64,000 bases of DNA from Paraspadella gotoi (Eukaryota; Animalia; Chaetognatha). The stretch is taken from positions 15,563,103-15,627,102 of the forward strand of contig CM119268.1 of the NCBI GenBank assembly GCA_051294375.1. Reading direction: 5' to 3'. The notes under the pieces are model-generated. The model was not told where the DNA came from. It made no database searches and saw only the letters and a program-made list of their open reading frames with translations. The position numbers were made by a program, and so were the translations under genes. Shown here piece after piece: positions 1,381-63,660 of the stretch. Every line of letters begins with the position of its first letter. Within the stretch, counting starts at the first letter, position 1.

Positions 1381-1429
<49 letters not shown>

Positions 1430-15480: not shown

Positions 15481-18018
<2,538 letters not shown>

Positions 18019-36700: not shown

Positions 36701-37184
36701 TTTGTACTCTTTTTCACTACTCCATAGTAATATAACTTTCTTAACATAGCTCCAGAGTTCGCTCACCGACGGGCAATACTCCAAAAACAAAGTAACAATC
36801 CTCCCTCCCCCGCGGTCATTCATGCGCGAAGCGGCGTCGTAGTTCCATTGCAGTCATGTAACGTTCTTAATTTACATCCGGCTCTTCCTCTGGTAATCCG
36901 TACTTCGTAGTTCCACCAAGGTGCAGTTTCCGTTTTCGGCTTTGCAAGAAAAAGGTTTCAGGCGCCAAAAACGCTCTCGTGAGAGACAGAGAGGATAAGA
37001 ACGACAGAGAAGGAGAGAAACAGCTGGTACTGAACAGCCCTGCGTTACGTCGTTACCGATATTCTCGTTGGTAAAGCCGGGGACCCCGGGAAGCTCGGCA
37101 CTATTTTCCCCGTAAAAAAAAAAAATTCCATCTGTCTCGAGACACCAAGAGAGAAACCGTGCGCGTCGCTGAATCAGCACTAAG

Positions 37185-40100
37185 ATGAACGTAATGAACG
37201 GACTGGACGACGTCAACCCCTTTGCAGACCCGGCCGTATTGCAAGCGTCGGGGGGACAGCGATACTCATCAAACGACGGTGAGAGGTTTTTGGCATTTTT
37301 CAACTTGATGCAATGCGATTGACGTGATAAGCGTTTCTTTCATTTTCGATCGTTGTTTGATTTGATATGACATGATCGGCTTTTTTCGAAGTCGAATTCT
37401 TATTTCGAGTTCGTTTTAAGAAAAAATAGTTTAGATTACTATTAGTATTATGAATGGGATTTTACAGATATATTATTAATAAAAAAATATTAAATAAATA
37501 TTAATTAAATAAATATTAAATAAATAAATAAATTAAAAGTAATTGCTCAGCTCCTTTCCCTCGGCTTTTCCGCAGGTGCTCCATCGGCCTTGGATGATTA
37601 CAACCCATTCGATCACACTATGGGTGAGTTACGAACTATACACTCATAATTAGGTCGAATTTCGATATCTATCTCTCTTTTATTATTTTTCAAGGTCCAG
37701 CCGCGACGCTTCCGTCCAGCGGATCGCTCGGCGCGGCGCGCCCACTTCCTGGCGACGTTGGTGGCGGCGTCTTCGGTGGTTCCACTGGGGCGTTGCCCAG
37801 CGGGAACGGAATGACTTCGGGAATGGGCAGCGGGAGGGGCTACGGGTCATTCACCAACATCAACACCGCTTCCACTTCTTCGCCTTCCGCGCAGGTTCGT
37901 TATTTGCTTTTTGATTTTAATAACTTTTTTTTTTCATCCTCTACTTTCATTTGCCACGCCCATAACGTCTTTCTATTCATTCTTCACTGAAATTCACAAT
38001 TTCAACAACACCTCTTTCACGCAGACCCCGCCCCCTTATTCCGCCTCCGGCGCCAGTTACGTCGGAGCCGGCGCCACCACAGACGACCTCAAGAGGCGAC
38101 AGGCGGAACTGGACCAAAAGGCTAACGAGCTGCAGCGGAGAGAAGAAGAGCTGCAGCGGCAGCAGCTGCTGCAAACTCAAGCGGGAAGAAGGTTAAAAAA
38201 ATAAGAGATCAAATCTTTTTATCAATTTAAAAGTAGCCTGTACTTGTTATTTTATTTATAGTGTAAAATATGTATATGTTGTACTCGCGTTGGCGCTTCT
38301 TTTCTTCCAGAGAGGAAAACTGGCCCCCCTTGCCCTCATGGTCGCCGATGAAGCCATGCTTCTACCAGGACATCGGCGTCGAGATTCCCGTCGAGTTCCA
38401 ACGGATCGTGACGATGGCCTACAGACTCTGGATGTATCACGTCCTCGTTCTTCTACTCAACTTTTTCGGTTAGTAGGGAGGAGGGAAGTAGCTTCACGGC
38501 ATAATTTCAAAATTAGGTCTTAAAATTCCTCGCGACCGTATAACAAAATGACCAACTGGGTTCAAAGTTTCAAACCCGAGGCAGCGAAACCGTCTTCACC
38601 ACAAATCTCAGATTTTATCCCGTGATCAACTTTTTCCCTCACTTCGGAAACATAATAAACAAATCGAATAGATTTTAACCTAATTTAAAAATCAAACGAT
38701 TGACCAAAAACAAAAATAATCCCACGACCCTAACCCCCTCTTCCCCCACATCCTTGTCCTTCTCAAGCTTCCCTCGCCTACTTCGTCGGCGACGGCTACG
38801 ACGGTAGCGGAGTCTTCGGCCTCTCGGTCCTCTTCCTCATCCTCTTCACTCCCTGCTCTTTTGTCTGCTGGTTTCGCCCTCTTTATAAGGTTGGCCCTTA
38901 CCCCCTCCAAAAGCCGAAACGTACCTTTTTTTTATTTGTCATAACGTTTCTACCCCAAGGCCTTTCGGACGGACTCTTCGATCAATTTCATGATCTTCTT
39001 CTTCGTTTTTGGCGTTCAAGCGGTGGCGTCTTGCCTGCAAACGATCGGTAGGCCTTGTAACATTATAAATGTTATGGAGCTCAATCATGCGGTTTGCTTA
39101 GTTTATTTAAATTTCGTGTTATTTTGATACTTCCGCGGTTTTTTTTTTCTGTCACGTGATCATTAATTTTTATTGCATACTGTCTTTCCTCCACTCCTTG
39201 ACATTAAATTATGATTATTAAGAAATTTCTATTATTTTTCAATTAGGCCTCGATTATTTCGGGACGGTCGGATTTATTAATTCGATTCGAATGCTTAGCG
39301 GAGGCAACATTGGTTCAGGTATTCTACAGCATTTTTATTTTAAGACACGGTAACCCCAACAATCTCCTGCTTTTCCCCTTCTCCACCCCTACCTCTAGGG
39401 GTGGTGATGATCCTTGTCGCCATCTGCTTCGCCGTCCAAGCGACCGGGGACGTAATCCTCTTCATTCGCGTCCACCGCCTCTATAGAACCAACTCTACCG
39501 CCTCCGTGCAGAAGGTGGGAATGCCTAGGACTCTTTGGAGACTGTAGCGTGTAGAATGTTGACGCGACGTCATAGAAAGTCGACATAGTGTGGCATGCAA
39601 TGAATTTGGGGCTCAAATGATTGCTGAGAATTTATTCGGTCTTTGTATACCAGATAAAAAAAAATGAAACTTTGCAGAATTAATAATTTATTCATGATGA
39701 AATAGCACAGAAATTAGAAGACTTTTGTCTTCCTGTAAGGTGCAAACATGAAATGAAAAAAAAATTGTGTCTATTAGGTTCACATAAGTTGGTTCACAGA
39801 ATTCTCTTCCCTCTCACTATTTTTGATCATATAAGTTTCTTCTTCTAAATTTCTATTGTCAGTTGGAAACTTCTGCCCCTTGTGGTGAAACTTTTTGTAG
39901 TAGAAAAATTAGCAATAATGTTGTCCCATATTGGATCAAGGCTTCCAGCATTTCTATTTATGACTTTATTATTTTTAAACTTTCTAAACATAATCTTCTC
40001 ATAAGTGAACAAAAATCTCTAAACATAATTTTATACTACCCCTCAGGGGGCAGAAGTAGTCAAGCCTTAAGACAAAGACGAAACAGGTTTCCAACTGACA

Positions 40101-40680: not shown

Positions 40681-42110
40681 TGGCGTGGCCAACAACGAAA
40701 CATCAATGCGGCTTTCATTTCTGACTGTTGGTAGCGCAGAGGCGTCACCAGTGGCGAAAAAGTAAATTCTCGGGTAGTCAGTTAAACACGCGTCTTCGCA
40801 ACTGTCGATGCTGTTGCTCTTTTTTATTTATTTTCCGTTGCGTTGTCTTCAAGACAGATTCATTACCGCAGTATTAAAAACAATTTTGAAAATGTTTCGT
40901 TGAAAAAAATTTCATTTAGTTGACGTCGTTCTTTCATATTACTCGATCCCTCCCCATGCTTTTAACGTGTTTGACCGTTTTATTTATCGGCTGAATAGAG
41001 AATTACACTATGAATGTTGTAAATTTTCGAGGTTAAGACGGCGCGTTGACTTTTTTTTTAGTGCTGACTTTTCTCCATTTGTTTGCCTACTGATATTTAT
41101 CTTAACTAATTTATTTATTTCAATTTCGGGTTTTATCCATTTATGCTCACTCAAAAATAGACGTTCTTTTACGTGATACGAGTTTGAGTTGCTATTTCCG
41201 TGGTTTACAATTTATATTAGTAATTTAGTAACTAGGTATGTATTTTTATTTCGTCAGCTAGAGAATAACTGCTAGAAGAAATATTTGAATATCAAAGCAA
41301 AGGGACAATTTCGTAAAAAGTACAATTTCATAAAAAGGTCAAGTCAATCTGTATTTTAATATCAAAGAGAAAAAAACTTTCATCACCCATAAATATATAA
41401 TAAATATAAAATAACCTAAGAAAAGAATCAAGAATCGTTGTTTCGAAGTGTTGGAGCCAACTTAAAAGTTAGATCATCCGATTCTTCGAAGTTTTCTCAG
41501 AAAACCTCCTCTCTAGTCTCGCTCGATCTCTTTCTCTCTTTTTTTTTTCTCCCCCATTTATTTTCTATTTTCCGCTCTTCTCGACTTTTGTTCGAGTCGG
41601 AGTTCGTGTTGGCACGAAAGACTCCTTTCACAATTCCCAGAATTGAAAGGATTTCCCTCTTATTGAGACCAATGGCAAATCCGGAATGATTACTCATTGT
41701 CTCGCGATCCTTGATCGGGGAACATTTCCGATAAACACTTTTTATACGTCACCACAAAAGTATAAATATTCCACCCCTCGCAGACTATATTATAATTTTA
41801 ACAAAAAAAGAAAAAGGAAGTGGTTACAAATGACTTCCATCGAAAAACGAAAAAAATATTAACCGAAAAAAAAAGGCGATGACGTCGACATTTTTTTGTC
41901 GCTCGCTTCATATAATACCTCTCAGGATTTGCCTGGATAAATAGGGGACTTTCGAACAACGGTGCAACATTTCAATAGTATTAATACGTACGTAAATAGT
42001 AAAATACGCATTTGTTTATCGCAAATCGACAGCGTATTCGACGTTCTTTCAAATAGTATGAATTGAAAAAAAAAAAGAAGTTATTTTACTTCGTCTACTC
42101 CATCGATGCC

Positions 42111-45100
42111 ATGTCGGTCTCGAGTGATTCCACGTCGGATTCCGACTTTCGTTACTTGGATTTCGAATTGTCGATCGTGTTGCCGATTCTGAGTATCGAC
42201 GCAGACTACGTGACGGATCCTTTCAAACGGAGGGCGCCTCCGCTGCAGAAAATTCGACGAAGAGATGGAGGGTCTGGGTGTTTTGAGACGATGAGGCGCT
42301 ATCAGGTAAGGCTATGGTGGACTAAAATCCACCAACCGTTCATCAGCGGCCATTTGTGCCGGAGGCAAGTCATTCGCCTCCCAACCCAAAGGTCCGGGGT
42401 TCTAGCCCGGTGGCCGCCTAGCAGTTAAGAGGGACGGGGCGCTTAACCCACCTGTAACATGGTGTTATAGCCTGATCCGAAGCTCAGGGACTGCTTATAT
42501 TGAACGGTTCTGTCACTAACACAACAATTATAACTGTCTCTTAATTGGTGAGGCCGACACAAGTGAAACGATGTAGGAGATGCAAAAATATTAAAAGCAG
42601 CCCAAAAATTAGGACTCCATGCGGATATCTCTGCTCCACGAGACGTTCCAAGGTCTCGGCAAAAACTTTGACGAGCGCGATCAACAACACTGCAAGATTC
42701 TAATGCAGCGTATCAACGAACCTCGACGAGGAAAGCTCTACTGGACGATCAAGTGCTCCGTCGACATGAAGCAGATCGATCGCCTGAGCCGGAGCATGCC
42801 CCGCGACCGGACGGCATATTTCTTCGTCCACGACACCACCTTCGGTTTGATCCGCGGAACGTCGAAAGGCGCCGTTCTGGCTTATATATCACTCAGCTAC
42901 GCCAAGCATCGGGTCAGTTAAATTTGCTGTTACCTTAAGAGGGAGTGGGGACAAAATGTAAATGGAAGCGGGAAGTGCTCATGGGATAAAAATGAGAACT
43001 CGCGGCGCAACTTAAAAGTGAATACCGCCCCCCAAAAGCGAAGTTTATTGCCAAACGAGTAGGACAATAAACTTTTTGTGTAATTGGATTACTTGTATGC
43101 TAGTTACAAAATACATCATTATGATGGTAAAAACATCTGGGTGAAATTCGATACTGTACGTAACGCTTGATACAAAATGTAATACTGAATGAACATCGTA
43201 TTTTTTAGATTGTACAATTGAGACTCTTTCGTGCATTATGAACGTTGGAGATAAGGGGACCTATCAAGCTTAAAAGAATTTAAAACATTTTTGAGACTAC
43301 AAAAATTTGATATAGGTATATGTCGTCTCAGTACTTTAATTAATACAAATTCAATTATTATCAATATTATATATTTTATCAGGAAAAAAATTCGAATTGA
43401 TTTTAAAAATTCACCGTGATCAAGCCGGGGGACTTTTGTGGATACTTACAACGTTTCGAGTTTGAGAGTTTCGGGAATGTGGTCACTTTGAGCGACAGCT
43501 TGAGGTTAATTGAACTTTTTCTGTAAAATTCCTGGTAAGACATCCATTAATAATTGACCTAGTTTAAAAATTAGGCCGTCAAACATCTCCGTCACGTTCC
43601 CTTCGCCCCCTGCGTCGTCAACCCTTCGGAGGAAGTTGTTCGCCGTCCAATTCCGGTGCCTGCCGAGGTTGCTAGCGTCGGCGTCTTCCAATCCTTTAAT
43701 GAAACCCAAAAAGAGACTATTTATTCGGTCGTTACCATGGTGATGGACAAGGATCCGAAACCGAAACTGGCTATGGTGCAGGTAAGCGAAGGTTAGTTGT
43801 AATAAACAAACCAAAAAAAACAAAAAAAAACATCAATTGGCGGAATATGAAGAAAAAAATATCCCTCTTCAAACTTATCTCCAAGGGTCCGCCAGGTACT
43901 GGAAAGACCCACATGACCACGGGCATCCTGCAGCTGCTCGTGGCGGCCGGCATTCACAGAGAGGGCGCAATCCTCGTCTGCGCTCCTTCCAACGCCGCGG
44001 TCGACCAACTGCTTCTGAGAATCATGGACGAACCTTGGACGATGGCGTTGAGTTTGGTTCGGGTCGGAAGAGAAGAGAAGATGATGGAGGAAGTTAAGGT
44101 TGGTTTTAATATAGTTTAAGTTTAAACAATGACTTCACACAAGTTTTATAAATATTTGTTAGCGTGCACGATTACGCGGACCAGGAAAAAAGGTTTTTGG
44201 AGAACAAGATGTTGCTCGGAAAAACTACTGGTTTCAGCCGTCTTATTGACCTTCGGGTAGAGGATGGGGGCTTAAATAATCCTTGCCGCATATCCGTTTC
44301 CGCAGGAATTTCGCCCGACTGGCGAAACTCGTGGAGAAGTTCTGCAACAGATCGTCGACGCAGATATTCTATTCACGACTCTCAACAGCTCGGGCTCCTT
44401 CATAGTGAGATCGGCGAAGGAGTTGGGAAAGACCTATAGCTGCCTCATCGTGGATGAGGTGTGCCAAAGCGTCGAGCCCGACTTTCTCATCCCGATCGTC
44501 AACTACGAATTCTCTCGAGTCGTCGCCGTCGGCGATCATCTGCAGCTGCCGCCGACGGTGTTGTCGAGAGAAGCGAAGAGCCTTTATTATCAAAGGTACG
44601 ATCGATGGATCAATCAGTCGAATCAATAACTAGGTTTGCCGTCTTTTCTCCTCCTAAATAGGTCCTTCGTCGAGAGGTATCAAGACTACTTTTTCTCCCA
44701 CGGCCTCGAAGACGAGCTCATGATGCTGAACGTGCAGTACAGGATGCATCCTGCTATCTGCAGCTTTCCAAACGAGCACGTTTATGAGGGAAGGATTCAA
44801 ACGGACACCTCCGTCTTTAACCGGTAACCGGCGAGGATTTGCGCTATGTGGGCGAGGACTAATATCCGTATGGTGGACGAACTACTACAACAGTATCCTA
44901 TTAGGCTATTTGGCCCCTCGGCAGCAATAAAACGGGCTTGGAACCAGGCTTGAGGCTTTTCAAGGCCCCCAAGGCGGTTTACGGCCGTCCTCAAGTTTTT
45001 CGCAGGGTAGACAGCATTAGGGATCGATCCCGGTACCTAATGGTCATGATGGCTTTTCTTCATGAGCCACCGGTTCAAAAGTTTAAACTGAGAGAGTCAT

Positions 45101-47508
45101 GTTTTATAGCCGGGATGAACTCGGCGCCATGACGAAATGCATTGTTACGAAAATAGTTTAATGAAACATATCGTATGTACAAAATTTTACCTAGTGCATA
45201 CGGTAAAAAAGTTGACCAAATTCTGCATAAATATTTTTGAATAAACTCTTATTTATACATACATCACCAATATTCCCCACAGTTACAAAGGCTCCGTGAC
45301 CCCGTTTCCTCTCCGACCCTACGTGGTCTTTAACCTAAAGGGGACAGCCGAGGAGCGAGAGAACGAGAACGGAAAGCATCCCTTTTCCTGCTTCAATACG
45401 AGAGAGGCCGTGTTCGTGGTGCACCTTTTCATACAGATCATTCAAGCCGTGCCGGATCGGTCCATCGGGATCGTGACCCCTTATAGGGCGCAGAAGGCCA
45501 TAATCAAGGTGAGTTTCACTAAAGTTAACGAGATATTTTAGTATTAGATATAGATATTTTAGATATATAGATAGATATTTAGATAGATATATTAGATATT
45601 AGAAATAGAATAATTAAAAATTAGGATAAAGGAAAAAATTTATTTTCATTAAAGTATTTTAAAATTATATTCATGACATAAAGGTGCCCCTATAGACCTT
45701 TTCCCAGTATGTATCCCTATCAGAACATACAATTCTACTTTGTAGTCTTATCCCTATTAGTTTTTTTAAAAAATCATATATAACTTTGGTCCCCCATCAA
45801 AAAATTATCCATTCCCACCCCTTTCTGTTCAGCCTATTAGATATTATGATTTTTCATTAATGACTTTCTAACAGGAATGATGTGTGATATCTATTAGAAA
45901 ACTAGGACAGATTGTAATCTAACCTTGTGTTGTGTAGATGCTCCCTCTATTTCCAGAAGACAACACTGACTTCCCATTCCCAAAATGAGTTATTAGATGT
46001 AATGATAAGTAAAAAAATTTTAAGAAAGCAATATATATATATTTAAAGAATATAGATTAAATGGTAAATTTTTCATAAAATATAAAAATAAAAAATAGTA
46101 AAACAAGTAATTTGAAAATTTTCATATTAAAGTAAATTTGTTTTGGTTCGTGGATTGTGAGATGAACATGTGAATTAAAGGTTGCTACAGAACTTATAGG
46201 AAAAAATAATAGGAAAAAAATTAATAAAAGAAAAGAAGAAAGAAGGAGAGAAAGAAAGAAAAATGGAAAGAAACTCGGAAAAAGAAAGGGGGAAAAATTT
46301 AAGAATGAATAAAAGAATGAGAGACTGACGGTGATGAAAAAAAAAATCGCCAAAACAAGACGAAAGATAGTACAATGTACAAATACATGTACATTATACA
46401 ATGTACATGTATTTTACAATTATACAATGTACATGTATTTTGAATTTCTTCCTCCAGGCTCTCCTCAAGACTCTTCGCGTCAACGACGACGGGTTCATCG
46501 TTAAAAAAGATGGAATCTTTGGTCGCATCGATCCCAAGCGTCTATTCGACAAGAACAAGTGAGATGATGATGATGATAACGATGATCAATAATGATTATG
46601 ATGTTTTTTTTTTTTTGGATTATCTAATGCGGGCAATTAAAAAACTAAAAATAAACTCGACTCGTTCTATCGACAGAAACATCGTCTGCAAATCTTCACC
46701 GCGGCCGTCGATCGGCTCAAAACTATTAAGGGTAAAAAGAAGGGCAAACAAAAATGTTGGCTGAATGATTTCGTGACCGTCAAAACCGTCGACTCTTATC
46801 AGGTGAGAAAAAAAAAGTAAACAAAAAATCAAACAATGTCAATGATTCAATATTTTCTCTCTCTCTGTCTCTCTCTCTCTGTCTCTGTCTCAAGGGTGGC
46901 GAGAAAGACGTGGTCGTTTTCAGTTGCGTTCGCGCGTCACCCGAAGATCTCGAAAACGAAGACTTCGATATCGGATTCGTCCGCAACCGACAGAGGATGA
47001 ACGTCGCCCTCACACGGGTGAGACAAAAATATATACATTTAAGAAAAATTAAAAAAATAAAATTAAATAAATGAAAATTCACAAATGAATAAAAGTGAAA
47101 AAATGTATTTGTACATTTATTATTTTGCTTCTTTTTATTTATTTACTTTTATTTATTTAGAGAGTCTGCGTTTACATATAATCATAAACAAAAGCCATCC
47201 AATAGCATCCCATCATTTTCACTACTAGCGCCCGTGAGGCTCTCTGCGTCGTCGGCGCCTTCGACACGCTTGAGAGCGCCGATGAGAACTGGAACGCCCT
47301 CGGAGAAGACGCCCGTCAGCGCCGCAAGTTCGTGGACGGAGTTGGTAGAGTGGCGGAGACGATAGAGGGCATGAAGGAGGAGGTGGTGGAACGGATTAAA
47401 GCGGCGGTGAGAAAGGAGGGAGAGTTGATTGTGAAATGCGACGACGATGATGATGAAGACGACGACGACGTTGAAGATGATGATGATGATGATGACTATA
47501 GCGATTAG
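42111..47508 (+). CDS. Senataxin/UPF1-like SF1B helicase (short, about 13 exons; several junctions off by 1 nt, possible errors or pseudogene)
   Basis: FNETQKETI, VQGPPGTGKT, ILVCAPSNAAVDQL, LIVDEVCQSVE, VGDHLQLPPTV, LNVQYRMHPAICSFPN, IGIVTPYRAQ, VKTVDSYQGGEKDVVVFSCVRA, RMNVALTR/AREALCVVG; acidic tail. Confidence 0.85.
42346..42418 (+). mobile_element. tRNA-derived sequence (probable SINE head) in helicase intron 1
   Basis: 73 nt with acceptor-like pairing gcggcca/tggccgc, a B-box-like ggggttctagccc and tcgcctccca resembling tRNA-Gly(CCC); the anticodon stem does not pair. Confidence 0.5.
45623..46000 (+). repeat. Interspersed intronic repeat family B, copy 2
   Basis: Similar to 9771-10155. 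Confidence 0.85.
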
Positions 47509-48555: not shown

Positions 48556-51500
48556 TCACGGACAGGCAGAGATGTCGACGTTGCTGATTTTGATGGAGGA
48601 GGAACTCAAGCTCCAGACGACGTTGTCCTCGTCCTTGTCGTAGTCTTTCACCATCACATCCTTGACGCAACCCCGGAAGTTGCTGTCCCCCATCGGCTGT
48701 AGGGGCCAACGATCGCGTTCGTTGTCTGAAGTTAAAAGAGGAGATAGGACATGAGAGAGAGACAGAGACAGAGACAGATAGATAGAGAGAGAACGAACCA
48801 GGGATTCCTCCAATGTAAAATTTGATTTCGCCCTCGTGCTTTTGTTGAGCATCGGAGTTGAAGGCAGTTTTGCCTTCGATCTCGTCGACCTGAAGATAGT
48901 ACGGAAATAAATAAATAAATACCACGGATAGTAAAGGTATTGTTAAGATTTGGATTCAAAGTTTAGATCAACACTCACAATGAGCATAAGGACAGTACGG
49001 ACGATCCTCGCGTCCACAGAGTGCCATTTGTTGTTACAGACTTCGAAGCCATCTTTGAATTTCTGAAAAAATCGCCCCCCCCAAAAAAAAAGCAAATTAT
49101 AACGAGCGACCCATTGAACTCAACTGCGGACTCTGAACTCACGTTGAAGTTTGACTGGAAGGTGACCATGGAATCCCTCGTCCCTGATCGCGTCTGCAGC
49201 CGCAAAATGAGCTCTCCCTGATGCAGTTCGAGCATCAGGCACGGAAGTTGGGGATCGTCTGTAGATTAAAGCGTTTTGGTACAATTATGGAATACGACTA
49301 CGAGCTTGGGAAATAAATAAGTCTCAAAAGTTTTGACGACTTATTCTTTTACCAAGATGGTATGTGAGGTAATAAATCTTTTTTTTCACAGTAAAGCTAC
49401 GGATTTACTATTTCATTTCGACATATCTTGATATGATTACTTCTAATTCGCCCATAAACATTTTTCACACACTTTAATTTACAAATAATAACCTACTGTA
49501 GATTGGACAATGGGCATTAAAACAAAACTATTTCACCCAAATTTAGGCTTTTAAGCGCGCATCAGCCATTTCACCTACAATATAATTTCCAAAGTCTTAC
49601 TCTTACCAGGACTTCCCAAGGCTAAGAGGACGCCTTCTCGACTCGTCGTCTTGAACTTGAGCTTGATTTGCATCCAATCGTCGATGACGAACTGGTCGTA
49701 GAGTCTCGCGTATCCTAAAACCAAAGTTTAGTTCACCATGTAACAACCGTATTCCATAAATATTGAAAGAATGGATAATTTTTAAATCGGTTGTCCTATT
49801 TCATAATAATCAGTGAAGAGTACGATATATTATTGCCGGAACAACTACTTGAGAGAGTGGTTTTTAGTTTTTAGTCTATAATTCACTTTGTCGGTCCGTC
49901 GGTCCGCCCCCTAAATCTTGTCGAGCATTCAATTATATCATGTCAGAACATCAAATTATGATAAATTATGCAAAAAAAACGATGTCCGTCCGTCCGTCTG
50001 TCTGTCCGTCCCACCTTAGCAAAAAACACCAATTACTCGTGATTGGATGGATGGATTGGAATGAAATTTTGTTTGTAGGTAAGGAAGTGTGTATTTGAGC
50101 TGGATATGAAGTTTCGATGGAATCGTCCGAGTGGAAATGAGTTTAAATAGAAAAAACAAAAAAATATATTTCACTATTTGAACACCAATTACTCATGAGT
50201 GGATGGGGCGATTGACTTAAAATTTTGTATTTGGGTGGAAAAGTGTGTGATTAAACTGGAAATCAAGTTTCGATAGAATCGTTTGAGTGAAAATGAGTTG
50301 AAATGGAAAAAACAAAGAACAAATGCTTCTTTTTCTTTTTATTTTAAATATAAATGCAAGATGTATTAATTAATCAAATAATTAATTAGTTAATTAATCA
50401 ATTAGTCAATTAATTAATCAATAATTAATTAATCAGTTAATTAATCAAAACAAACATTTTTGATCAAATTAATTGCATAATTAATTAAATAATTAACTTG
50501 AATAAATTAATTAATTAATTAATTAATTACCGATAATGATCGTGGGCAGATCCGACATTGTTTGCTCAAACTTGTTTTTTAACATTATACCACTTCATTG
50601 TCGGAAAGCCAGGTACTTTTTTAGTTAATAAGTAGATTGTCAGAGAGTCCTGATTGAAAGCTTGCAGGGCCACGCCAAGTAAGAGAGATAGAGGCCTGAG
50701 CAATGTACAAAGCATGTCCAAAGTCAAGGGCAAGATAGCTTATTTATTTAAAGGATAATTTTTATTTTGTTTGTACAAAATTTTTTAACATTTTACAGCG
50801 TTGATTAAAAAATGCCATAATCTAACAAAACTTTTCCACGCACCCTGTCCCGAAAAGTGCGCTCCTTTGATGAGGCCGCCCTCCCTCGGAGTGTTACAGG
50901 GCTTCGCGTGTCGATTCTCTCCCAACGGATTCTCCTCCATCTTGGAAAGTTTTTCATTGATGCGGAAGTCTTTTACGCAGCCTTGTAGCGGGTAGAGGAT
51001 CTGAAAGATTAAAATGAATTAACAGATAGAAAAAGTTTTTTGACGGTAGTTTTTTTAATAAACTGAATGGATGGAGTTAAACGTTTAGAGTGGAGTCCAA
51101 AAATTTCACTCTCTTATCTGATTTTTGGACAATATTTTAAATCGGATTAAACTTTCAATAATTTATCGAATTACTAGTAGAATAAACAATTTAAATAGGT
51201 AGGGATATTGGTTTATAAATACGAAACGGAAATTAAATGTGATTGGTTTATATAAAATTAAATAAAAGATGAAGTATTTTTGAAAAATTATCTTCACTAG
51301 ATAGATTTGACGGATGCCAACTAAAAAGGTAAGTTTAAATAAGGATTTCTTTTTCCGGGTCTTTTCCACGTCCCATATCCTCGCCGCGGTTTGCATCGCG
51401 GGAGAAAAGGACCGAATTCATTTTTACGGCCAATATTGGGCTATTTCCGTAGCTATTATACGGTGTAGTACATCCTAAATAATTAACGGCTAATATTCTT

Positions 51501-54500
51501 TTTCTATGGTGGGGAAGGGGCCGGAAGATTATGCGTGTATATAAAGAGAGAGGACGATTCTCGCTAATGATTCGTCAGATGTTCGACGTTAAAAATTCGC
51601 GAGACTTCCGTTTTATAAAGGGAAAAAAGTAGGGATTGCGCGTGAATTTTGTTGAATAAAAAATAGCATACCGCGTAATACTGCGTATCGACCTGAAACG
51701 AAAAATCAACGGCTTTTGTTTTAGTTTAAGTTCATCAGACGGCAGGAAATCAATTTGCATTTTGCTGTCAAGCATTGAATCGCATTTGCGGAAACGCCAC
51801 AAGACACCTCGTACAAAGGAAAATAAAAAAAATAAAAAAACTAACGAGTTTGAAAGGCATGGATGTTCTCGGTCCGCCGATCTTAAGTTTCGGACTCCAG
51901 TCCACTGCTTCCGACGATTTCTTCATTTTTCCCTCCTGAGAAAACAAAAAATTAAGTGAGAAGAGAGAAACGAGGAAAGAGAGAGATAGAAAATAGAAAG
52001 ACAAAGAAACTCACCATCACTTCCCCGCCGTCAACTTGAAGGCTGATGGACTTTCCGTCTTTCACCACTTTCACCTAAGAATAAAAAGAAAGAAGATTGT
52101 TTAAGAAAAAAGAGTCTCCTCTTGATTTCAATCTCTTTTTATGAAAAATGAAATATTATTTTCTGTAGTTTTAATCATTCTCTAACGGCGGAACAGGTCT
52201 TTTTTTTCTTCACAAATAGCCTAATCTCAATGCCAAACTACCCATCACATCTTCACCTCGTGAAAATTTCCGTCGGAAAACTCCAGCCCGTCTGTCATTA
52301 GCCCCTTCTGACTCGGCTGACCCGGCTTGTCCTTTGGCTTCTTGAAGTTGAGCACGACGTTTCCGTCCATCAAGTAGGCCGTCAAGTAGACGTCCTTGTT
52401 GTACACGCTGGGCTCCATGTAGAATAGGATTCCTAGGAGAATAACAATTACGTATATGGAATTAAATAGAGCGGAACAACTTTTTTTGTTAGATCCTTAT
52501 CTCAATTTGATATTTTCTTAGAACACTTAATATTCAAACAATTCTTCTGGACCCTCCGTTCACATATGTGAGAAATAGTCACGTGACCGGCCCCGTCGAC
52601 GACATCCGTATCCTAACCGTTCTTGTAGAAGCTCCTAAACTTGAAGGAGATGGTGAACCTCCTCTTAAAGTCCTCGGCCATATCCTGACCCACAACTTGG
52701 AAAGGGTTGACGACAGCGCGGGAGAGACGATGGTCCCCGAATCGAAGGGCGTTCTCTTCCTGCATCAACTCGGTCGTCACCGCGCAGTCGCCCTTTGGAT
52801 GTCGAGAAAAGTAAAGGGGGAAGTGGGCGTGGACGGAATGCCGTATTAAGTTTTTAGTTTTTATTATTACAGCCGCAAAGCAATCCGCCAACAACGTTAG
52901 TTAAATTAAACAAACCACAGTGTGAATGTACATGAACAAAACAAAATTAAGCGTCTTTAAATCTTATTTCTTTCGGCCGAAATTAAAAAGTTTCGAGTTT
53001 TAAAAATCAAACATAAGTTCGCCGCTCGGAAGCGACGAGGGTGGAACCTCATAACAAACACGGTGGTCGCGGTGAACCTTCACACGAAAACAAAAGGGAG
53101 CGCGCGCGCATAACAGAAAACGGTGAGTGCTTCTTTTATCTTTGTTGACAAAATGATTAAAAGTAAGTTGATTACCTCGTGCTGTTTAACAAGGGAGAGG
53201 CCGATAATTCCGGACTTTTTTTAGAATTCGTAAAAAGTGGATATTTTGTTGTTGCGGTTTTTTTTTAGTTTTTAAACAAAACGATAAAAATACGAAGCGA
53301 CAATCATTGCAGAATTATTCTTATATCAATATTACGAAAGGAAAGCTTATTAAAAAATAGTGCGACCAATAGAGATTTGAATGCATCAAAACTTTTGGCA
53401 AATCAATTGATGATTTGAATTGATTTTTTTGTTTTTTTTTGCAGCAAATCTTTATTTAACTAAGAATCACAGAAATAAAAATTTACAATGATTCACTTAA
53501 TATAAATTATGTTTTTTTCTGGCATAATTTAGTAAGCAAACGCTCTAACCAACATGTTCCACAACCCTTGACTTACCTCTGGCGGCGGTCTCGGCAAATA
53601 GCGCCGCCCGATGTCGGCGTTCTCAAAATCGGCCGGCGCGCCGAAAGGATAAGGGACCGGGTTGGAGGCGACGCCGATCTTAACGTTCTCCACGTAACCG
53701 AGAACGGATTTAGAATGGGGCAGGGGAACCACGCCGTCGCCTAAGAGAAGGTAAGAGGGTGTTTGGGAGTTTGGGACTTTAAAGTAATTTTATGGATTAT
53801 GATATCTAACCGAGAAAAAAACTCCAAAATCTAAAATAATGGGAAAAAAGAAGTGAGCCAAAGGGGTTACGATTGGGTGAGGTCAAAAATCTTAGAGTGA
53901 AGCGATTCCAGTAAAGACCCCTGTAAATAGTTGATGCGTGTACATTCATAAAATATAATGCATATGATCCCCTCACTCTTAAAAGGTTCCGGATATCCTC
54001 CGATGAAGAGCCGAGTAACGTCGATGCTTCCGTCGGCTCCCGGCAGCGTCACCGAGTTGGCGTTGTCCCCGTCAACGTTCATCGTCAGACTCCGCGTCCC
54101 CGCGTCGTAGCGAATCTCCACCGATTTTCTCGCGCGCGTGTTGTGATCTTTTAGCGAGGTCATGACCACCTCGGGAGAAGTGCGAGTTCGGAACCGGGCT
54201 TGGACTTTGCCTTTGGTAGGGGGGGGAACATAGGGGGGGGTCGTAGGAGAAAGACAAAGAGAAAAAAAGGCGTATTATAAAAATTAGAAATACTTCGTTG
54301 GCGGGGCACAAGGTCAACAGAATTCGGATTAAAAAAACGAAAAACGAAAAACAAATAAAAAAAAATGAGAAACGACAACGTACTGTACAATGTACAATGT
54401 ACAATGTACAATTTTAACGTACTGTCGACGAGGCCGACGCTGAAGTAGCCCGTATTGCCGTTCCGCCCGAGCAGCAGCAGTCCGTCGCTGCCCTCGGGGG

Positions 54501-57500
54501 TGTCGATGGCGGCGAAGTCGAAGGCGACGACGAAGTCTCGATCGAGGGACAACTTGTTCGTCGTGAGGAGGATGTGACCGTCGCCGGAGAAGGTGGACAC
54601 TGTGTACTGGTCGGGGTTGAATCCTTGAGGAGTGGGTTCAAAGGGGGGCGAGGGGAATATTTCATTCAACGTTTTTTTTTCTACATAATTTGATTCCATT
54701 TTATTTTATTTATTAAATTCATTCAATTATAAATCATATTTTTTTATTTCATATAATTATTTATTTTTTAATTTCATATAATTACTTTTAATTTTTTGAA
54801 AATTGTTATAGTTTTATAAAAGAGGAAACCTTCTTTCGGATTGGTGCCCATGGGTCCAGCTGGTCCCTCCGTCAAATCAATGTCGACGTCATTTATTTTG
54901 ATACCCTAAGAAATACGTAATGAAATTCAGGATCGTACGCGCAATCGTTCATGCTGAAAAAATAGTCAATTTTCACTTTTTTCTTGTTACCTTCATCGCG
55001 CCCAAAAAGCGTTTGTCTTCGCTTGGATCGAGCAAAATGCCCATACTAAGAGAGATAAAGAAACAAAAGAGTTATTAGAATAAAAAGTTAAAAAACAACA
55101 ACAACCACCCAAAAACCACCATCACAACAACAAAAACATCAACATTAACAACAACAACAACAAGACTCACTCCTCCAAATCCTCCTGAGTGAAGTTGAAG
55201 CCTCCAAAGGTGAGGACGGGATTGTCGAGAAGTGAGACGATGGCGTCGGAAGGCCGCGTTAGCGTGGCCACCACGCGACCGTCGACGGAGAGTTTGAGCG
55301 ACGTTTGACTCGCGTCGCGCTGCGGAGAAAGAGAGGGCAGGGTTGTTGTCGTTATCCAAAGAATGCATAACGCGAAACGGAAAAAGATAAAAAAAGAAAA
55401 AGAATAAAAAGGGGTTTTTACCGCGAGCATCAAGTCGACCCAGTCGGCGATGTTGACGCGCTCTTCGATCTCCACCACTTCGTCGCCGGCCTGACCGTCT
55501 CGAGTCTTGTAGGCCAAGTGGAGCTTCGTGTCTTTGATGTAGAGGGCCATGTATTCGCGGGGCTGCATAGGAAAGAGTAATAGGGCGATTTGAAAAAAAA
55601 AGGAATTGGAGATATTTTTTTTGTTTTGAAATTGGTACAACCAATATAAAAGTAATATTCGAAAGATCAGAGATTTTCTAGAATATTTTAACCCAGACAT
55701 TGCCCATAACCCAGTGGATAATGTCAACGACTTAATTATCCCCGTCCAACTCACGTTGGTCTCCCTGTCGGCGATCATGAGCACCGGTGCATCGTTCCAG
55801 TACGCCCAGAACGCCATGTCCAGCTTGAGCATGTCTTTGTCCGTCGCGTCGGCGAAGACGTCGTTGCCGGTCAAGAGTTTCATCTGAGTTCCGTCGAACT
55901 GGAACGTCTTGACGAAGCGCTGCAGGGGAAGGAGGGAGAGTGAGGTGCAGTTAAAGATATTAAAAATTAAAACAATAAAATAAAAAAATATATATATCAG
56001 AAGGCAATGCGCGTAATCGCGATAATCACAAGTTTAAACATGAACCCGGCTCCTAAGAACCGAAGCCCTTTACTACGCCACTAAATTTATAAACGGGTCA
56101 AACTGGGCTACGTCATAATATCTCACCGGCCTCTTTTGCTCCCCTTCCCCGAGGTAGGCTCGTCCGAGATCCGCCCGATGATAATTCTTTTCCTTCGTGT
56201 CCAAAAACAAGACTTTGTCGCTGACGACAATGTCCTTGACGGCGCCGACGAGGAAGAGGTCACTCGCCGTCTTGTCGCCAACGGCAACGTTGTCCGAGAC
56301 GCCTCCTGATATAGAAAAATTTCAAGAAACTCAATTTTGATTGATGGATGCATTGATTGATTGAATACTTATATCGTAATTTCCTTTGGAAAATATTGTT
56401 ATCACGGTAAGCCTTGAAAACTTTTCGGTCGGCCTGTCTGTTAGTTTTATCCAACCTCAGTCTTTCTAAGTTTTTCATTATGCTGCTTTTTTGGAAAGCT
56501 CCTTATATCATTATAAAAGTTTCTTTTTCGCAAACCGCGACTAGGTTTGCAAAAAATTTAAATTTTTGATTTTGGTTCGTTAAAAAAAGAGACAACCATA
56601 TACCTATGTATAGTTTGTCGACGTTGATGTCGATCGGGTCAGAAAATTCCCCGATCTGTTTCTTTCCCGCGATGCTCTTTGTGTCCACAAAGACTTCGAA
56701 TCTAAAAGGCGGGAAAAGTCATTCGCTATAAACGAAATGTCGGAATTTGCGAAATGCTGTCGACGCTGAAGTCGCCGAAAGAGGAAAAGACATTCAACGA
56801 AAGAGGAAGGTGGGGCAAGCGAGGTCGGGAGAGTGAGGTGAGTTCGATAAAACAAGATCGAATGTGCGATCAACTGATATTTGAGAGAAAACGTAAATGG
56901 AAACGATTCGGGGGGGGGAACGTATTTGATAATCGGGTTGTGTAATTTGTAAATATATGTAAATATATTGTAAAGTTCTACATTCTCTCTAACGAGGTCA
57001 TCTCACGGAATTGCAGTGATCTATCTCGTTCGTATCGAATGATTGGGAAAAAAAAGGCATTTTTTAACGTATTAATTCGTTTTTATTACAATTATATTAC
57101 TGTTACGTTTTTTTTTTTCACTCATCCGATGATGGCTTTGAGAAGTTCTACAGCTAAAAATGAAATTCAAGACATTTAAGATTTTGTGGAGTTTCTGGAT
57201 CGCACGATACAAAAATGGTATTTCATAAATTAAAGAATTAATTACGCAGGCGTCGGGACGACGATGTCGTTTTGTTTTGATTACATGTGAAAGGACAATT
57301 TTTTATAGACAGCACAAGATGAAAACAACAATGCAAATTTGACAAAACGCCTAAGGCTGCAATAAACAAAATCACGATCGCGATGAGAAAATTTCGAAAA
57401 AATATATAAAAAATTATACAAACTCACAACAACGGATCACCAGGTTGCACATTCCTGTCCATCAAATATTAAAGAAGATGAAAATCCAACCAAAAATAAT

Positions 57501-58448
57501 TCGGATTTAGAACCAAACGCCCATAATAAAGGAAGTAGAAATAAATTACGTTAAAACTCACGGCGAAAACACAGTTGGAAAAGCCTCCTCATACTCACAG
57601 GTTGTTCGGAGTCCTGGCTAAGGTAACAACCACCCAGTTCCCAGTGTTGTACTTGGTGTCTCCAGCCTCACTAGAATCAAAGACGGTCGTTTTTCCGTTG
57701 TGACCCAATTTCGCCACCAAGTTGCCATCTTCGAGGCTAAAGGACCAGAACTCGGTATCCTTTATTAAAATAGAAAGGAAAAAAGGCCGTGAAAAAATCG
57801 AGTTAAGTAGAGAGGCTGAAACAAGCAATGAACAAACAATTGAAAACAAAAACCATATAAACAAAACAAATAAACACGAAAACAAATAAACCAATAAAGA
57901 AAAACAATTAAACAACGATTACTAACGTATTTTCCGGTGGCCAATAGCAACATGGTATCTTTTTTCTTCGTGTTGAACATGAATGAGATGGAATCTCGGG
58001 ACAAGTTGAATCGTGGGATGTCGCGTTCAACCCACCCGTCGCCGAGGAAAGAGACGGCGCGATGGTGCTGCGTGGTAAGTTAATTAGTGGTTGGTAGGAG
58101 AGAACCACAAATTTGTTAAGAGAATTAGATTACGTCCCATTTTTTCAAAAAAAATTAGAGAATTGACACTACTTAGGTTTTGAATTATTATAACATTTTG
58201 ATATTATTATTACAGCATACATGTTAAACTCTTGGCTTAAAACTTACTTCCTCCATACGGCACCCGATGTCGGCGCCGTAGTATACGAAGTTCTTCGGCA
58301 GAACGTAAGTCTCTCCGTAGGCGTTGCTCAGATCGCTGATGCATCCGAGGAGGCGGGGCAAGCCCTTGGTCTCATCGGGGAGATTGAGGTACATGGGGAA
58401 ACCTTGGGGGTGGAAGGGATGGAAAGTAAAGATAGAAAAAGGGGAGAA

Positions 58449-58514
<66 letters not shown>

Positions 58515-61500
58515 GAGACTTTAAAAAAACTTCTCACCTCCAATGAAGACGGTTCCGTTATCGACCGTCTGCAATCGGCCGCATTCCATCTCCAACTCTT
58601 CGACGAGTCTCGTCTGATGATGCACCTTCAGCTGGCACCTGGTGCTCTTGGATCGAGCCAGGTGCTCGAACGTGATTTTGAATTTCTGACGTCGGAGTGC
58701 ATAAGATGTACGCAACAGTTTTAATTTTTATTCACACTATCGGATGTGAAAGTCAATTTGGAACCGACCTCGTTGGTGTTGTATCTTTGTTTTGTGGCAG
58801 CGGAGTTCATGACGAAGTTGCCATTTTCGTCCTCGAACTGTTGACGGAGAACGACTTTGCCGTCTTCGAAGGCGATCATCGTGAAGGGCACCTGACGACG
58901 AGCGGTTTGGGGCAGAGGTGGAGTGAAAAAAGATGCAAGTTTAAAAATTTAAAAAGTTTTAAATGATTTCTTAATACTGCAGTATGCAAATGAGATTGAA
59001 GGACTTAATCTTAATTTGAATTGATATTGATATTTGATTGTCTTTCGTCTGACCTGCGACGAGTCATCGTGCAGATCCTCGTCTCCGTAGAAGAGGAGGA
59101 CGGAGTTGATCCATCTGGTGGAAACTCCGAGTTGGAAAGACTTGAACCGATCGATCTTTTTCTCTGGAGGCGAAGATGATACGTAAATGCTCATTTATCG
59201 ATATAAAAAATACGAAAACTATACGAGAAATGTTGAAATTAGGAAAAAAAAAGGATATATTTAAAAACCTAAACTAGATATTTGAAGTAAAATTTTAATA
59301 AATGCCAATTGATTTACTAACTCGGTCTCAACTTGGCGTATCCAGTTCCATCCAGTTCCATTTCTAATTCCGATACTTTCTTTCGCAGACTCTTCATTCG
59401 GAGACCCCCGTCGTCGAAACCTGAAGATGAAGTTTATTAATAGTATATTTAGTAATTGCGATTGTTTAGACTGATAGAGTTAATGTTTTTTTTCAATAAG
59501 AATAATGACTATGAATATATTTAGCAATTGCGCTTGATTGGAATATTTGTTTGTTTTTTTGTTTTGTTTTTGTTTTCATAAAAGTATAGAAATTATTTTG
59601 ATATTAATGTTTGACATTCCTATTCATTTCATCTCCCTTCCTTTCTTTCTTTCCTCTTCCAAGTCCGAATGTCCTCACCCGAATTGCCCATCCAAAACAC
59701 GGCGGGGTTGTCCATGGGGTAAGAGAGATTCTTGGAGAAGTCATAAAGGCCAACGGGTTTGTGGTTGAAGAGGAGATCGGCGACGGCCCCGTTGAATCCG
59801 TCTTTGGGTCTGATGCAATTGGGAAGCTGATGGAAGAGATAAGAAAAGATTCCATAGTTTGGGTAGTTCCTTATTATTGGTGGGTTAACCGGCCTGGCCC
59901 AATTAAATGCAATAAGGTTATAGGGCTAATACGCTAATAGGGCTCGAACCACGGAAATTTCGGTCGCAAAACAAAACAAACAAAACAAAAAAACAAACAA
60001 AACAAAACAAACAAAACAAACAAAAACAAAACAAAAATTATAAGCACTCACGTATCGCTGATAAGCGTCCGGCACGCCCCCAACGAAGAAGTGGGATTTC
60101 TTGTGAAGGTCCAGTTTGGAATAACGGAGGTCGGCCTCGTCGCTGAGACGTCGACGCGACTCGGCGACGAACTTGGGCTCCTCCAGACTCTCGGCTCTGA
60201 GGGTGGCGTGGATGCCGTCGCGGATGGCCGTAACCTTTGGGGGGGTTTGGGATCGAGGAGAGGATCGAGAGGATCGAGGAGAGGGTCGAGCGAGAGGATC
60301 GAGGAGAGAGGATCGAGGAGAGGATCGAGGAGAGGATCGAGGAGAGGGTCGAGAGGATCGAGGAGAGGGTCGGGGGATGACAATCAATGAGATCGAGGAA
60401 GAATTGATGGGTCGAGAAAATCTAGATGCATTTTCATTTTCAAACGACAATCAAGATATACTGTTAACGGAAAACGTTTAGATACATAATATAAAAATAT
60501 ATATGCATTTTTTTGCTGATTTTTATTAACTCACCTTGTACCATCTGGGAACCTCCTCCGCGGCGGAGTCGGCCTCGCGCTTCGGCGCCGCCCGCAGCGG
60601 CTTGTCGAGGGTGACGCTCTTGCATCCGGCGCCGACGTCCCAGGAGAAGCGAAGGAGACGGTTGTCGATCATGTCCACGGCGAGGAAGTCGCCTCCCTTG
60701 TGGCGAGAGGGTGAGGGTGGGGGGGGAAGAGAGAGATATGTCAGTCCCGACTTATTTTTATAACAGACAGTAAACATGATTTGTCGCTGTCCGTGGATCA
60801 ACCCATTGATTGATTGATTGATTGACCCGTTCAGATCGATTTTTATAAAATCCACAATTGCGGAAATTTGTTTCGATCTTGAAGATTGAGTGGGACGACG
60901 GTCATGTTTAGGTATATTTGGGACACAACATTGATTTTGTTTATCATAATCAATAACTACATCCTACACGATTATCGGCACAAAGTTAGTAATTTCTTTA
61001 GGATCTTGTTCACTACATTTAATTGACAAAAAATCCTTTACCTTTCGAACTTGCTGCGTTGTCAATCGAAACAAAGTAAAGGTATAATGAGATAATTTGT
61101 GAGTCAAAAGTTATATTGATACTGCTGTATTAATCGGGATTAGTCAAGGAACAATAGGGAAGTGTCATGATTCGCATTTACCCAACATTGATTGAAAATA
61201 ATTTATAAAATTTAAAAAAAAACCATCGAAACGTGGGTTTTTGCGGAATGATTTTGAAAACATAGTCTAAATTTGTATTTTGCAAAGACGCTTAAAAATT
61301 TGAAGGGAAAATATCCGTCACGTTGAAAATGTTTGAAACGCCGTGACGACAATTTCCGCTCCAAACTTTCACCATCTGACCATTCGATTGGAGATAAACA
61401 ATCATGAACAACATGTTTTTCCGATGAACAGAGAACACGAGAATAGAATAGGTACCATGTTGGAAAAAATGAGACGATGATTGAAAAACTTAAAAAAATA

Positions 61501-63660
61501 AAGAAATATTCAATACTAAAGGAAAAAAAAGGTTTAAAGGTTCTTACAAGAAACATACTCAAATTCCCCAAAAAATATAAATCATTTTTTTAAATTATTA
61601 TATTTTTTCATTCTTAAAGCTTCAAAAGTTCTCCAAAAATGTCGGCGTCTTTTTTTAAACATGGTAGAAAAGTGAAACATTTAAATCCCGCTAAAATTTC
61701 CGTGCGAGTTTGCGGGATCGAACGTAGCTCATCACCGCAGACCCAAAGAACATGGAACGAATAACCGGCTTACACATTGTTTATACCGGTGCATATTGAG
61801 CCGGGATGTTGACTTTGCTTTACCTTCGCCGCTTGTCTTTTTGTTTTGAAATTTCGCAAATGTTTTCTACGATTTTTCCTTCGCAACTTTTTCAAATGTT
61901 GGCGGCGCTTCCGTCGCGCAGAATATTCCTTTTTTTTTGGTTTATTTCATTCGTAAAACGATTTTTATTTTCGATTAAGAAAAGATAATGTAATTAATTC
62001 AATAGAGGTATAAAGACTAAGCGAAATAAACTCTCCGTGTCAATTATGAAAATAAAAACTATTAGTAATTTAGTAACTATTCAAAGACAGTTAATGACTG
62101 ATTACGATTTAGACTCAAATAAGAGAAGAGTGATGATCCTCACCTTAGGTTCGCCCATGTAAAAAATGAGCTGATCTCCGGTGGGATCGAAGACTTTGAT
62201 GTAAAACTCGATCGAGTTGGAGAGACCGGGAGAAACTCGGGGGACGAAGGAGCGATAAGATTTGGCCGAGGTGTCGAACGTCTTCGAATTGTCGATCTGG
62301 AGATGAAGGATCAATTAGATATTTATTTATTAAATTCAAGAGATCGATCGATCGATTGAACACTTTTGACTTTACGCACCAGATTGGCGACGCCGTGGGC
62401 GATCTTGAGTTGCTCCCTCAGCTTGTCGATGTTGTACTGCAGCTTGGTCTTCATGGCTTCGATTCTGAGGAAGGTCGAGTTCAAGTCGCGCAGCTTTGGT
62501 TCGATGGAATCGAGATTGTCCCTCGCGTCGTCAACTGAGGAATCAGAAAGAGATTTGAAAATATAACGGCCAGGCCAATCAGACCCATCTGACGCACCTC
62601 CTTAATGCTTAAAATAATTAGATATCTTCTAATTATTACACATACGTTCGTGAACTAATGATTGTCTTGAAAATTCGATAAATAATCTAAATTCAAATCT
62701 AAAATTCTGATCAGATTGAGCAACGCGAATCTCCATCGACATTTACGTAAACTCGAAAAGAATTACTGAAACAATACTGTCTGGAGAATAACCTTACCTT
62801 GTTTCCTGGCCTTGGAGATATCGTCCTTGGAGGCACCCTCCAACAGCTTGTCCACTTCAACGCGCATCTTCGCAGTCTCGTTCTCGTAGTAGTTGACACG
62901 GTCGGCGGCGGCTTTCGTTTTGTCGGCGGCTGCGTCGATCTCTTTGGAGCTTTTCCGGACTTTTCCGGTCAGCCCCGAGTCGTCTGGTAGATGAATTTCA
63001 TGAGTTAATGACTTACACATAATAACAAATAAGGTTTAAAATATGGAAATTAATCTCTTTTAAAATCATTGATCCAAATAATCAATAAGGTTTGTGTTGT
63101 TTGTACAAATTTTGATCAAGCAACCCATCGGACAAAAATTTATTAAAGTAGATTAAATCTCCGAGATTTCGAATTTGGGTCTTGAGAATTTCTGGGAAAT
63201 GAGTTGACACGGTTAGTTTACCGCGCGTCGAATGAGCCTCAGTGGTCATCGTCATCGTGGTGGTCATCGCCGTCGTTGCGGCGTCTTCTTCGCCGTAAGC
63301 CCACAAGAATCTCTTTATTCGCCGTGGGTCTTAGGACGAATTTTACGAAGGGTGGCATAAAATGACAGGCAGCGGAAAAAGGCGACAGTTGAACGGAAAA
63401 CAGGGAGCGCGAACGACAAGACAGTTTATAATTCTATCTAAGTGCTACTATTAAATCAAGCTCTTAATATGACCCTAAGCCAGAAGCCCGCATCTTTTTC
63501 CACTTCTCCAACTCACCCGGATCAGTTGGATCTCCGTAGACTTTTGTACATCTCGTTGATTTGATCGCTGAGCTTCTTCTCGTTCTCCTCCGCCGTCGGA
63601 AGGTCGAGCTGCTCAATCTTGTCAGTTCGTTTTGCGCGATTTGATGTGGCTCATTCACGT
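48556..63660 (-). CDS. Laminin alpha chain, C-terminal part (coiled coil + LG domains), probably alpha1/2 (wing blister/LAM-3) type; continues beyond window
   Basis: About 26 exons: coiled coil (..MKTKLQYNIDKLREQLKIAHGVANLIDNSKTF), then LG repeats ending FRGCVKDV...VDISACP*. The LG1 segment DFLAVDM..FSWDVGAG resembles alpha1/2 (from recollection). Confidence 0.9.
49861..50577 (+). mobile_element. Helentron-associated (DINE-1/HINE-like) element in laminin intron
   Basis: cactttgtcggtccgtcggtcc, a (GTCY)n tract at 49984-50010 and the terminus gatccgacattgtttgctcaaacttgttt; homologous to 19251-20356. Confidence 0.7.
58453..58512 (+). repeat. (GA)n microsatellite at laminin intron
   Basis: Directly visible. 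Confidence 0.95.
60249..60372 (+). repeat. Minisatellite of ~12-bp ggatcgaggaga units just upstream of a laminin splice acceptor
   Basis: About ten imperfect tandem units. Confidence 0.9.

Follow-up and report, generated by a model that had tools for sequence, protein, structure and literature searches.

The window analysed here, a 64,000-nucleotide stretch of the Paraspadella gotoi (Chaetognatha) assembly GCA_051294375.1 (contig CM119268.1, positions 15,563,103 to 15,627,102 of the forward strand), carries on its minus strand the 3' part of a gene whose identity as a laminin alpha chain was supported. Exon borders were set by coordinate after 64000-48200 had been read in the three minus-strand frames. 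The first model contained 34 exons, all 34 with AG/GT flanks and in one frame to the stop at 48556, and a 35th exon of 27 nucleotides (nt) at 57454-57428 was added from a spliced contig. The resulting model of 35 exons runs from 62983 to 48556 with GT-AG ends at all introns and encodes 1,552 residues in one frame that is closed by a single stop codon (48558-48556). The end of a coiled coil is followed by seven laminin G (LG)-type units of 195-215 residues, each with an aromatic-x-Gly-type first strand, followed by a Gly-Gly strand and, late in the unit, a Gly-x-hydrophobic strand. A sequence-only reading of the window had already proposed seven such units joined by in-phase splicing, and the frame is indeed open over 62983-48556 with canonical introns throughout. 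The motifs quoted in that reading were found in the sequence, although the G.(V/I/M).D unit end that it described is present in five of the seven units and missing from two. Its coordinates were close overall, but several borders move by 1-17 nt and the 27-nt exon of unit 3 (57428..57454, phase 2-2) had been overlooked; this exon has AG/GT flanks, an open frame and two contig joints.

All units lie on the minus strand. Unit 1, corresponding to LG1, has four exons at 59679..62296 (corrected span 62296-59680) and contains the sequence VGLYDF at 59754-59737. Unit 2, or LG2, spans 58248..59420 in five exons. Unit 3, or LG3 (56127..58067), is a phase 0-0 block of five exons and 606 nt that has no cysteine and ends in ADLGR at 56174-56160. 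Unit 4 (54830..55919, five exons) is the first extra LG domain; it is free of cysteine and has a net charge of -14. The second extra domain, unit 5 (53577..54623, three exons), is probably of LG3 type, likewise without cysteine, and reaches ADIGR at 53618-53604 before a short proline-rich linker. Unit 6, or LG4 (50896..52792), has a linker cysteine ahead of the domain, and unit 7, or LG5 (48556..50895), has an extra cysteine at 49038. The canonical C-terminal disulfide cysteines of LG domains are kept in units 2, 6 and 7 and absent from units 1, 3, 4 and 5. Unit 2 carries a second cysteine pair in addition to the C-terminal one, and in LG1 (62296-59679) two cysteines stand elsewhere (model residues 189 and 283), perhaps as a replacement disulfide.

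Pfam profiles were run on single exons or natural open frames, not on whole spliced domains, and matched Laminin G in five of the seven units, with E-values of 0.012, 1.1e-4, 9.2e-5, 0.0029 and 0.12 for units 3, 4, 5, 6 and 7 (Laminin_G_2 in each case). The gathering score was passed by the two extra units only (Laminin_G_2, 23.2 bits for unit 4 and 23.4 for unit 5, cut-off 22.9). No Laminin G match was obtained on exon fragments of units 1 and 2, and an NCBIfam scan yielded nothing relevant. In a leave-one-out test, each unit was scored against a hidden Markov model (HMM) of the other six and compared with the best-scoring of 300 shuffles. All seven units exceeded the best shuffle, including unit 2 with 34.5 bits; unit 1 was marginal (7.0 against 5.5 bits), and the other units reached 15-42 against 2-12 bits. 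A C-terminal tandem of LG domains is borne out by the Pfam matches in five of the seven units and by the leave-one-out test in all seven. For unit 4, AlphaFold was run on the natural open frame of 249 residues, two introns included; the model had a mean predicted local distance difference test (pLDDT) score of 42 and was not used.

A public sequencing run, X1, was employed to follow the message; it was taken as spliced solely from its joints, and its RNA status is a guess; no run recorded as RNA appeared among those listed for this sequence. Of the words sampled from 52600-58430, 34% are present in X1, which is about the exon share. A spliced contig of 11,216 nt from this run is continuous through units 3, 4 and 5 and into unit 6, with introns skipped at their GT-AG ends. 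Thirteen of the 14 introns between 58402 and 52618 are listed as contig joints, including those between units 2 and 3, 3 and 4 (56127-55919), 4 and 5, and 5 and 6 (53577-52792); the joint of the 14th was dropped at a repeat, and the contig offsets agree with the model at five of five points, which covers this intron as well. Eight exons (55919-53577), together 1,185 nt long and in phase 0 at either end, encode the extra units, and this block is skipped by none of the 13 listed joints. Upstream, a contig of the same depth (15.7) supplies the additional bases at positions 63543 and 63621; downstream, the span 51000-48304, which extends past the stop, is covered by another spliced contig, 978 nt long. 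The N-terminal short arm (LN, LE and L4/LF) would lie beyond the window; within the 11,216-nt contig, 7,643 nt precede LG1, a length that fits neither the alpha-1/2 nor the alpha-3/5 type exactly. The sequence-only reading had anticipated that exons 55919-53576 are included together with 59421-56126. One spliced contig carries both, so that the two pairs are not mutually exclusive, and its joining of the extra block to both sides places the extra exons in the same gene instead of another gene or haplotype. Three points weigh against this picture. The sequence comes from one run of one study, with a presumed RNA status; contigs do not represent individual molecules and leave rare isoforms invisible; and over the wider stretch 15 of 40 joints are listed, those of exons 1-11 not being among them. 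Taken together with the domain evidence, the seven-LG architecture is nevertheless almost certainly real and transcribed.

In the extra exons, GC content at third codon positions (GC3) is 0.76 in unit 4 and 0.77 in unit 5, compared to 0.67-0.76 in the rest, the block is free of stops, and both differences between contig and assembly inside it are silent. The first exon of unit 5 has a counterpart in the metagenome protein P0001, with 67-72% identity and a match that stops at the same exon end; P0001 gave no comparable match to the other six units. Judged from this match, a relative has an orthologue of unit 5; the P0001 contig is too short to show the number of domains. The Atlas structure model of P0001 is poor (pLDDT 0.46), with LG clusters only under the naming bar. 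A representative search returned six matches, namely P0001 and five repeat proteins that belong to other families according to Pfam. A word-based search with a unit-5 exon found none among 48 candidates, and a metagenome scan matched none of 536 stretches. In a second metagenome scan, 4 of 396 stretches matched; each of these four loci gave one short match without an exon chain, and they were dismissed as chance.

The ends of the tandem can be assigned from landmarks of known laminins. A conserved IGLWNF motif that docks on the coiled coil is described for LG1 in PMC2755686, and VGLYDF in unit 1 is the sole match of this type in the 1,552 residues. PMC3544787 ties the cysteine of the LG3-4 linker to LG5, and the cysteine that opens unit 6 and the extra one within unit 7 follow the LG4-5 pattern given there, the bond itself being inferred. 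Units 1-3 would accordingly close the usual triangle on the coiled coil, and units 6 and 7 would be the disulfide-tied LG4-5 pair.

Unit 5 would be a paralogue of LG3. The likeness between units 3 and 5 noticed in the sequence is real but weak (z-score 8.6). The two units pair in three of three trees with low bootstrap support (39-61) and have the ADxGR end in common. When the last exons of both units were combined in a profile, it matched the C-terminal part of the alpha-2 LG3 domain in structure 2WJS weakly (E-value 1.3). Under the construct numbering of PMC2755686, the arginine in this match corresponds to Arg-2705, a residue of LG3 that forms a salt bridge to Asp-2340 of LG2. By their sequences, units 3 and 5 appear to be old paralogues of the LG3 type. 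Identity between units is 14-25%, and no informative DNA likeness exists between the blocks of units 2-3 and 4-5; the duplication event is therefore old, as had been proposed. Several observations count against the LG3 assignment. The 2WJS match ranks under an unrelated enzyme, the longest exon of unit 5 matched alpha-1 LG4-5 (E-value 0.01) and not an LG3, and eight of ten PDB searches were without a laminin match. The position of Asp-2340 in the strand-A motif is presumed.

The history of unit 4 is more difficult. The proposed order LG1-2-3-2'-3'-4-5 was supported with regard to unit 5 as a probable LG3-type paralogue, whereas unit 4 as a copy of LG2 was not demonstrated. The likeness of units 2 and 4 noted in the sequence consists of a few residues, with a low pairwise score (z-score 0.6 local, 2.3 global). 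Both units have an Asp-Gly-Thr start at a matching strand, which units 3 and 5 lack. Unit 4 grouped with unit 2 in one of three alignments (bootstrap 32), and the number of exclusively shared residues was highest for this pair (13) in one of three alignments and ranked third and fifth in the other two. One duplication of an LG2-LG3 pair, with unit 4 as its diverged LG2 copy, requires a single event and is the leading candidate on these grounds, at a likelihood somewhat short of even. Apart from the low pairwise score, it is opposed by the absence from unit 4 of the cysteines that unit 2 keeps, by the higher local z-scores of unit 4 with units 5 (7.6) and 6 (5.3) and by the intron positions discussed below. 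The highest local z-score of all (11.2) belongs to units 2 and 7, a pair not regarded as recent copies, and pairwise scores therefore do not resolve ancestry. Approximately unbiased (AU) tests, run with 5,000 replicates, which is under the number advised by the program, rejected none of five histories.

The strongest competing history is a triplication of LG3 (1-2-3-3'-3''-4-5), in which the frame-neutral five-exon LG3 block was copied twice and unit 4 diverged fastest. Unit 3 is such a block (606 nt, phase 0-0), and the start of unit 4 falls at a matching intron position (strand-A Phe at codon 8 versus 7), which favours copying of LG3. Units 3, 4 and 5 all lack cysteine, but unit 1 is also without the canonical cysteine and cysteine loss is thus a weak marker. 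The best partner of unit 4 is unit 5 (z-score 7.6 local, 6.5 global), yet its score with unit 3 is only 0.7 and it has no ADxGR end. This history had the best likelihood in one of three alignments; it needs two events, and the intron between units 4 and 5 is in phase 1 instead of phase 0. As the source of unit 4 taken by itself, LG3 is a serious contender that stays behind LG2, and triplication as the full account of the seven-domain chain is unlikely.

Another alternative concerns the message instead of the history of the domains. The 1,185-nt block is in phase 0 at both borders, skipping of its eight exons would keep the frame, and a minor five-LG isoform is therefore possible. The extra exons could then form a regulated cassette by which the gene switches between five and seven LG domains, and contigs drop rare variants. 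However, the contig is unbroken across both borders of the block and 0 of 13 listed joints skip it, which makes a cassette quite improbable. The contig does break at a 21-nt micro-exon in unit 6 (51672..51692, minus strand, phase 0-0, AG/GT flanks), unlike at the block. The exon borders neighbouring the micro-exon coincide exactly with the end of one contig (51846) and the start of the next (51000), and the bases beside these two positions fit a branch of skipped, included and intron-retained forms. The micro-exon is probably alternatively spliced, neither spliced form being seen directly in a contig.

Derivation of unit 4 from LG4 by a duplication of the LG3-LG4 pair (1-2-3-4'-3'-4-5) would provide a second dystroglycan-type site. 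Units 4 and 6 have a z-score of 5.3 and were grouped in one of three trees (bootstrap 20), and unit 4 is acidic at the D-E and J-K loop calcium positions given in PMC6450144. Nevertheless, unit 4 has neither the linker cysteine nor the long N-terminal segment of unit 6, its net charge of -14 differs from the basic patches used in glycan binding by LG4, and the exon block of units 3 and 4 is not phase-symmetric. An LG4 origin of unit 4 is accordingly improbable, a chain built by this pair duplication is very unlikely, and little likelihood is left for any other origin of unit 4. The small assembly indel errors nearby (63543, 63621) might point to an artefact, such as a merger of haplotypes, an LG gene next to this one or dead exons. 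An artefact is largely refuted and scarcely credible given that the block of units 2-3 has no informative DNA likeness to that of units 4-5, that the contig joins the extra block to both sides, that the frame is intact and GC3 normal, and that an exon is conserved in P0001.

The reading preferred here is a seven-LG laminin alpha chain whose extra pair arose by an old tandem duplication around LG3 and would serve as a spacer arm between the predicted LG1-3 and LG4-5; we regard it as probable, although well short of assured. In laminin-111, LG1-3 form a triangle on the end of the coiled coil, with the gamma tail resting on LG1 and LG2 and the ring completed by contact of LG3 with LG1 (PMC5343747). 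The known integrin site requires the end of the coiled coil together with the gamma-chain tail that rests on LG1-LG2. The extra pair, placed further along the chain, has neither a coiled coil nor an LG1 beside it and should not form a second such site, and an integrin site in units 4-5 is unlikely on these structural grounds. Units 4 and 5 would instead sit where other alpha chains have a long flexible LG3-4 hinge. Eleven residues separate the ADxGR arginine of unit 5 from the linker cysteine of unit 6, and 18 residues lie between units 3 and 4; with the pair at the hinge position and the hinge short, the pair would set the reach and angle of LG4-5. It could thus act as a two-domain spacer between the predicted integrin head and the predicted sugar-binding tip.

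Unit 4 may also add a calcium site. Calcium-binding positions of LG domains are placed in the D-E and J-K loops (PMC6450144), and acidic residues stand at both likely positions in unit 4 as read from the unit alignment. LG4 glycan binding is attributed to basic patches in PMC3544787, and the net charge of -14 in unit 4 argues against binding of heparin or dystroglycan. The additional receptor-binding surface suggested in the sequence-only reading is speculative. A bolder proposal would see in a duplicated LG2-LG3 pair a second functional arm across an invertebrate lineage that has left the five-LG rule, with unit 4 binding calcium and a new glycan or protein partner and the micro-exon tuning LG4. 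It is rather doubtful; if true, the chain would show, as a natural experiment, the laminin foot gaining a receptor module.

The coiled coil upstream of the tandem is represented in the window by three exons. The last two (62983-62798 and 62534-62380, minus strand) are laminin domain II-like, with Pfam Laminin_II E-values of 0.043 and 0.0091, both on one exon, and scores under the curated 33-bit cut-off. The exon at 63517..63660 (minus strand) is 3 bases short in the assembly, with two small indels and a local frame shift, and the spliced contig supplies 1 base after 63621 and 2 after 63543. The frame shift in 63660-63517 reflects two small assembly deletions or an allele, and gene models built on this assembly may carry frameshifts there. 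An intronic repeat at 49870-50580 with a 156-bp two-copy unit reaches a depth of tens of thousands in run X1 and is probably a high-copy mobile element. Other genes in the window comprise a gene at 800-5960 (plus strand) with a C-terminal PH domain (Pfam E-value 2.9e-9), putatively melted/VEPH1, a multi-CUB-domain gene at 10750-13540 (plus strand) with three frames that match Pfam CUB, and a seven-exon Sec61 alpha gene at 15484-18017 (minus strand) with 94-95% identity to mite, mosquito and amphioxus proteins. They are followed by a secretin-family G protein-coupled receptor gene at 25550-28560 (minus strand, Pfam 7tm_2), a SCAMP gene at 37170-39550 (plus strand) and a superfamily I helicase gene at 42000-47505 (plus strand) that is related to AAA_11 and ends in an acidic tail; a search with the helicase returned a single match.

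Five LG domains, split three plus two, are given for all laminin alpha chains in PMC6450144 and PMC3544787, and the basement-membrane toolkit is described as little changed across invertebrates in PMC3308698. The P. gotoi chain resembles laminin alpha chains (vertebrate LAMA1-5, two bilaterian alpha types) in a predicted coiled coil that leads directly into LG1, an LG1 motif of the IGLWNF kind, an end resembling that of LG3, the linker cysteine before LG4, the extra LG5 cysteine and a Cys-Pro at the C-terminus, and its message, taken from two contigs, likewise measures at least 12 kb. It differs from them in having seven LG domains and in the lack of the canonical C-terminal disulfide in four of its seven units. 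As in mouse alpha-2 LG1-3 (2WJS), an ADxGR end with an arginine equivalent to Arg-2705 is found in units 3 and 5, and as in the alpha-2 LG2-LG3 pair a candidate partner aspartate is present in units 2 and 4. In contrast to 2WJS, cysteines are lacking from units 3-5; the matching stretch is short, its E-value is weak (1.3), and the P. gotoi domains are known from sequence alone. The stretch before the LG4 linker cysteine measures 11 residues here as opposed to approximately 40 in mouse alpha-2 (Arg-2705 to the construct end at 2746, according to PMC2755686).

Among the titles returned by literature searches, some of them aimed at a higher LG count, which did not extend to the main survey (Fahey and Degnan 2012) or to supplements, there was no report of a laminin with more than five LG domains, and a seven-LG laminin alpha is provisionally regarded as undescribed so far. 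The LG count of laminin alpha can thus change, and the site of change is after LG3, at the hinge and outside the integrin triangle. The chain offers natural tests of whether the length or flexibility of the hinge between the integrin and dystroglycan ends matters and of the folding of LG domains that lack their disulfide. Furthermore, the LG domains of divergent invertebrate laminins may be under-counted by domain searches and by templates with five LG domains.

In agrin and neurexin, binding is tuned by short spliced segments inserted into LG loops (PMC6450144, Table 1), and the 21-nt exon in unit 6 might act in a similar way. LG tandems of a length other than five are found in alpha-neurexin, with six LG domains, and in agrin and perlecan, with three, and the P. 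gotoi tandem is like them in this respect. Their tandems contain EGF spacers that are absent here, and unlike in these proteins the tandem of P. gotoi is preceded by a predicted laminin coiled coil.

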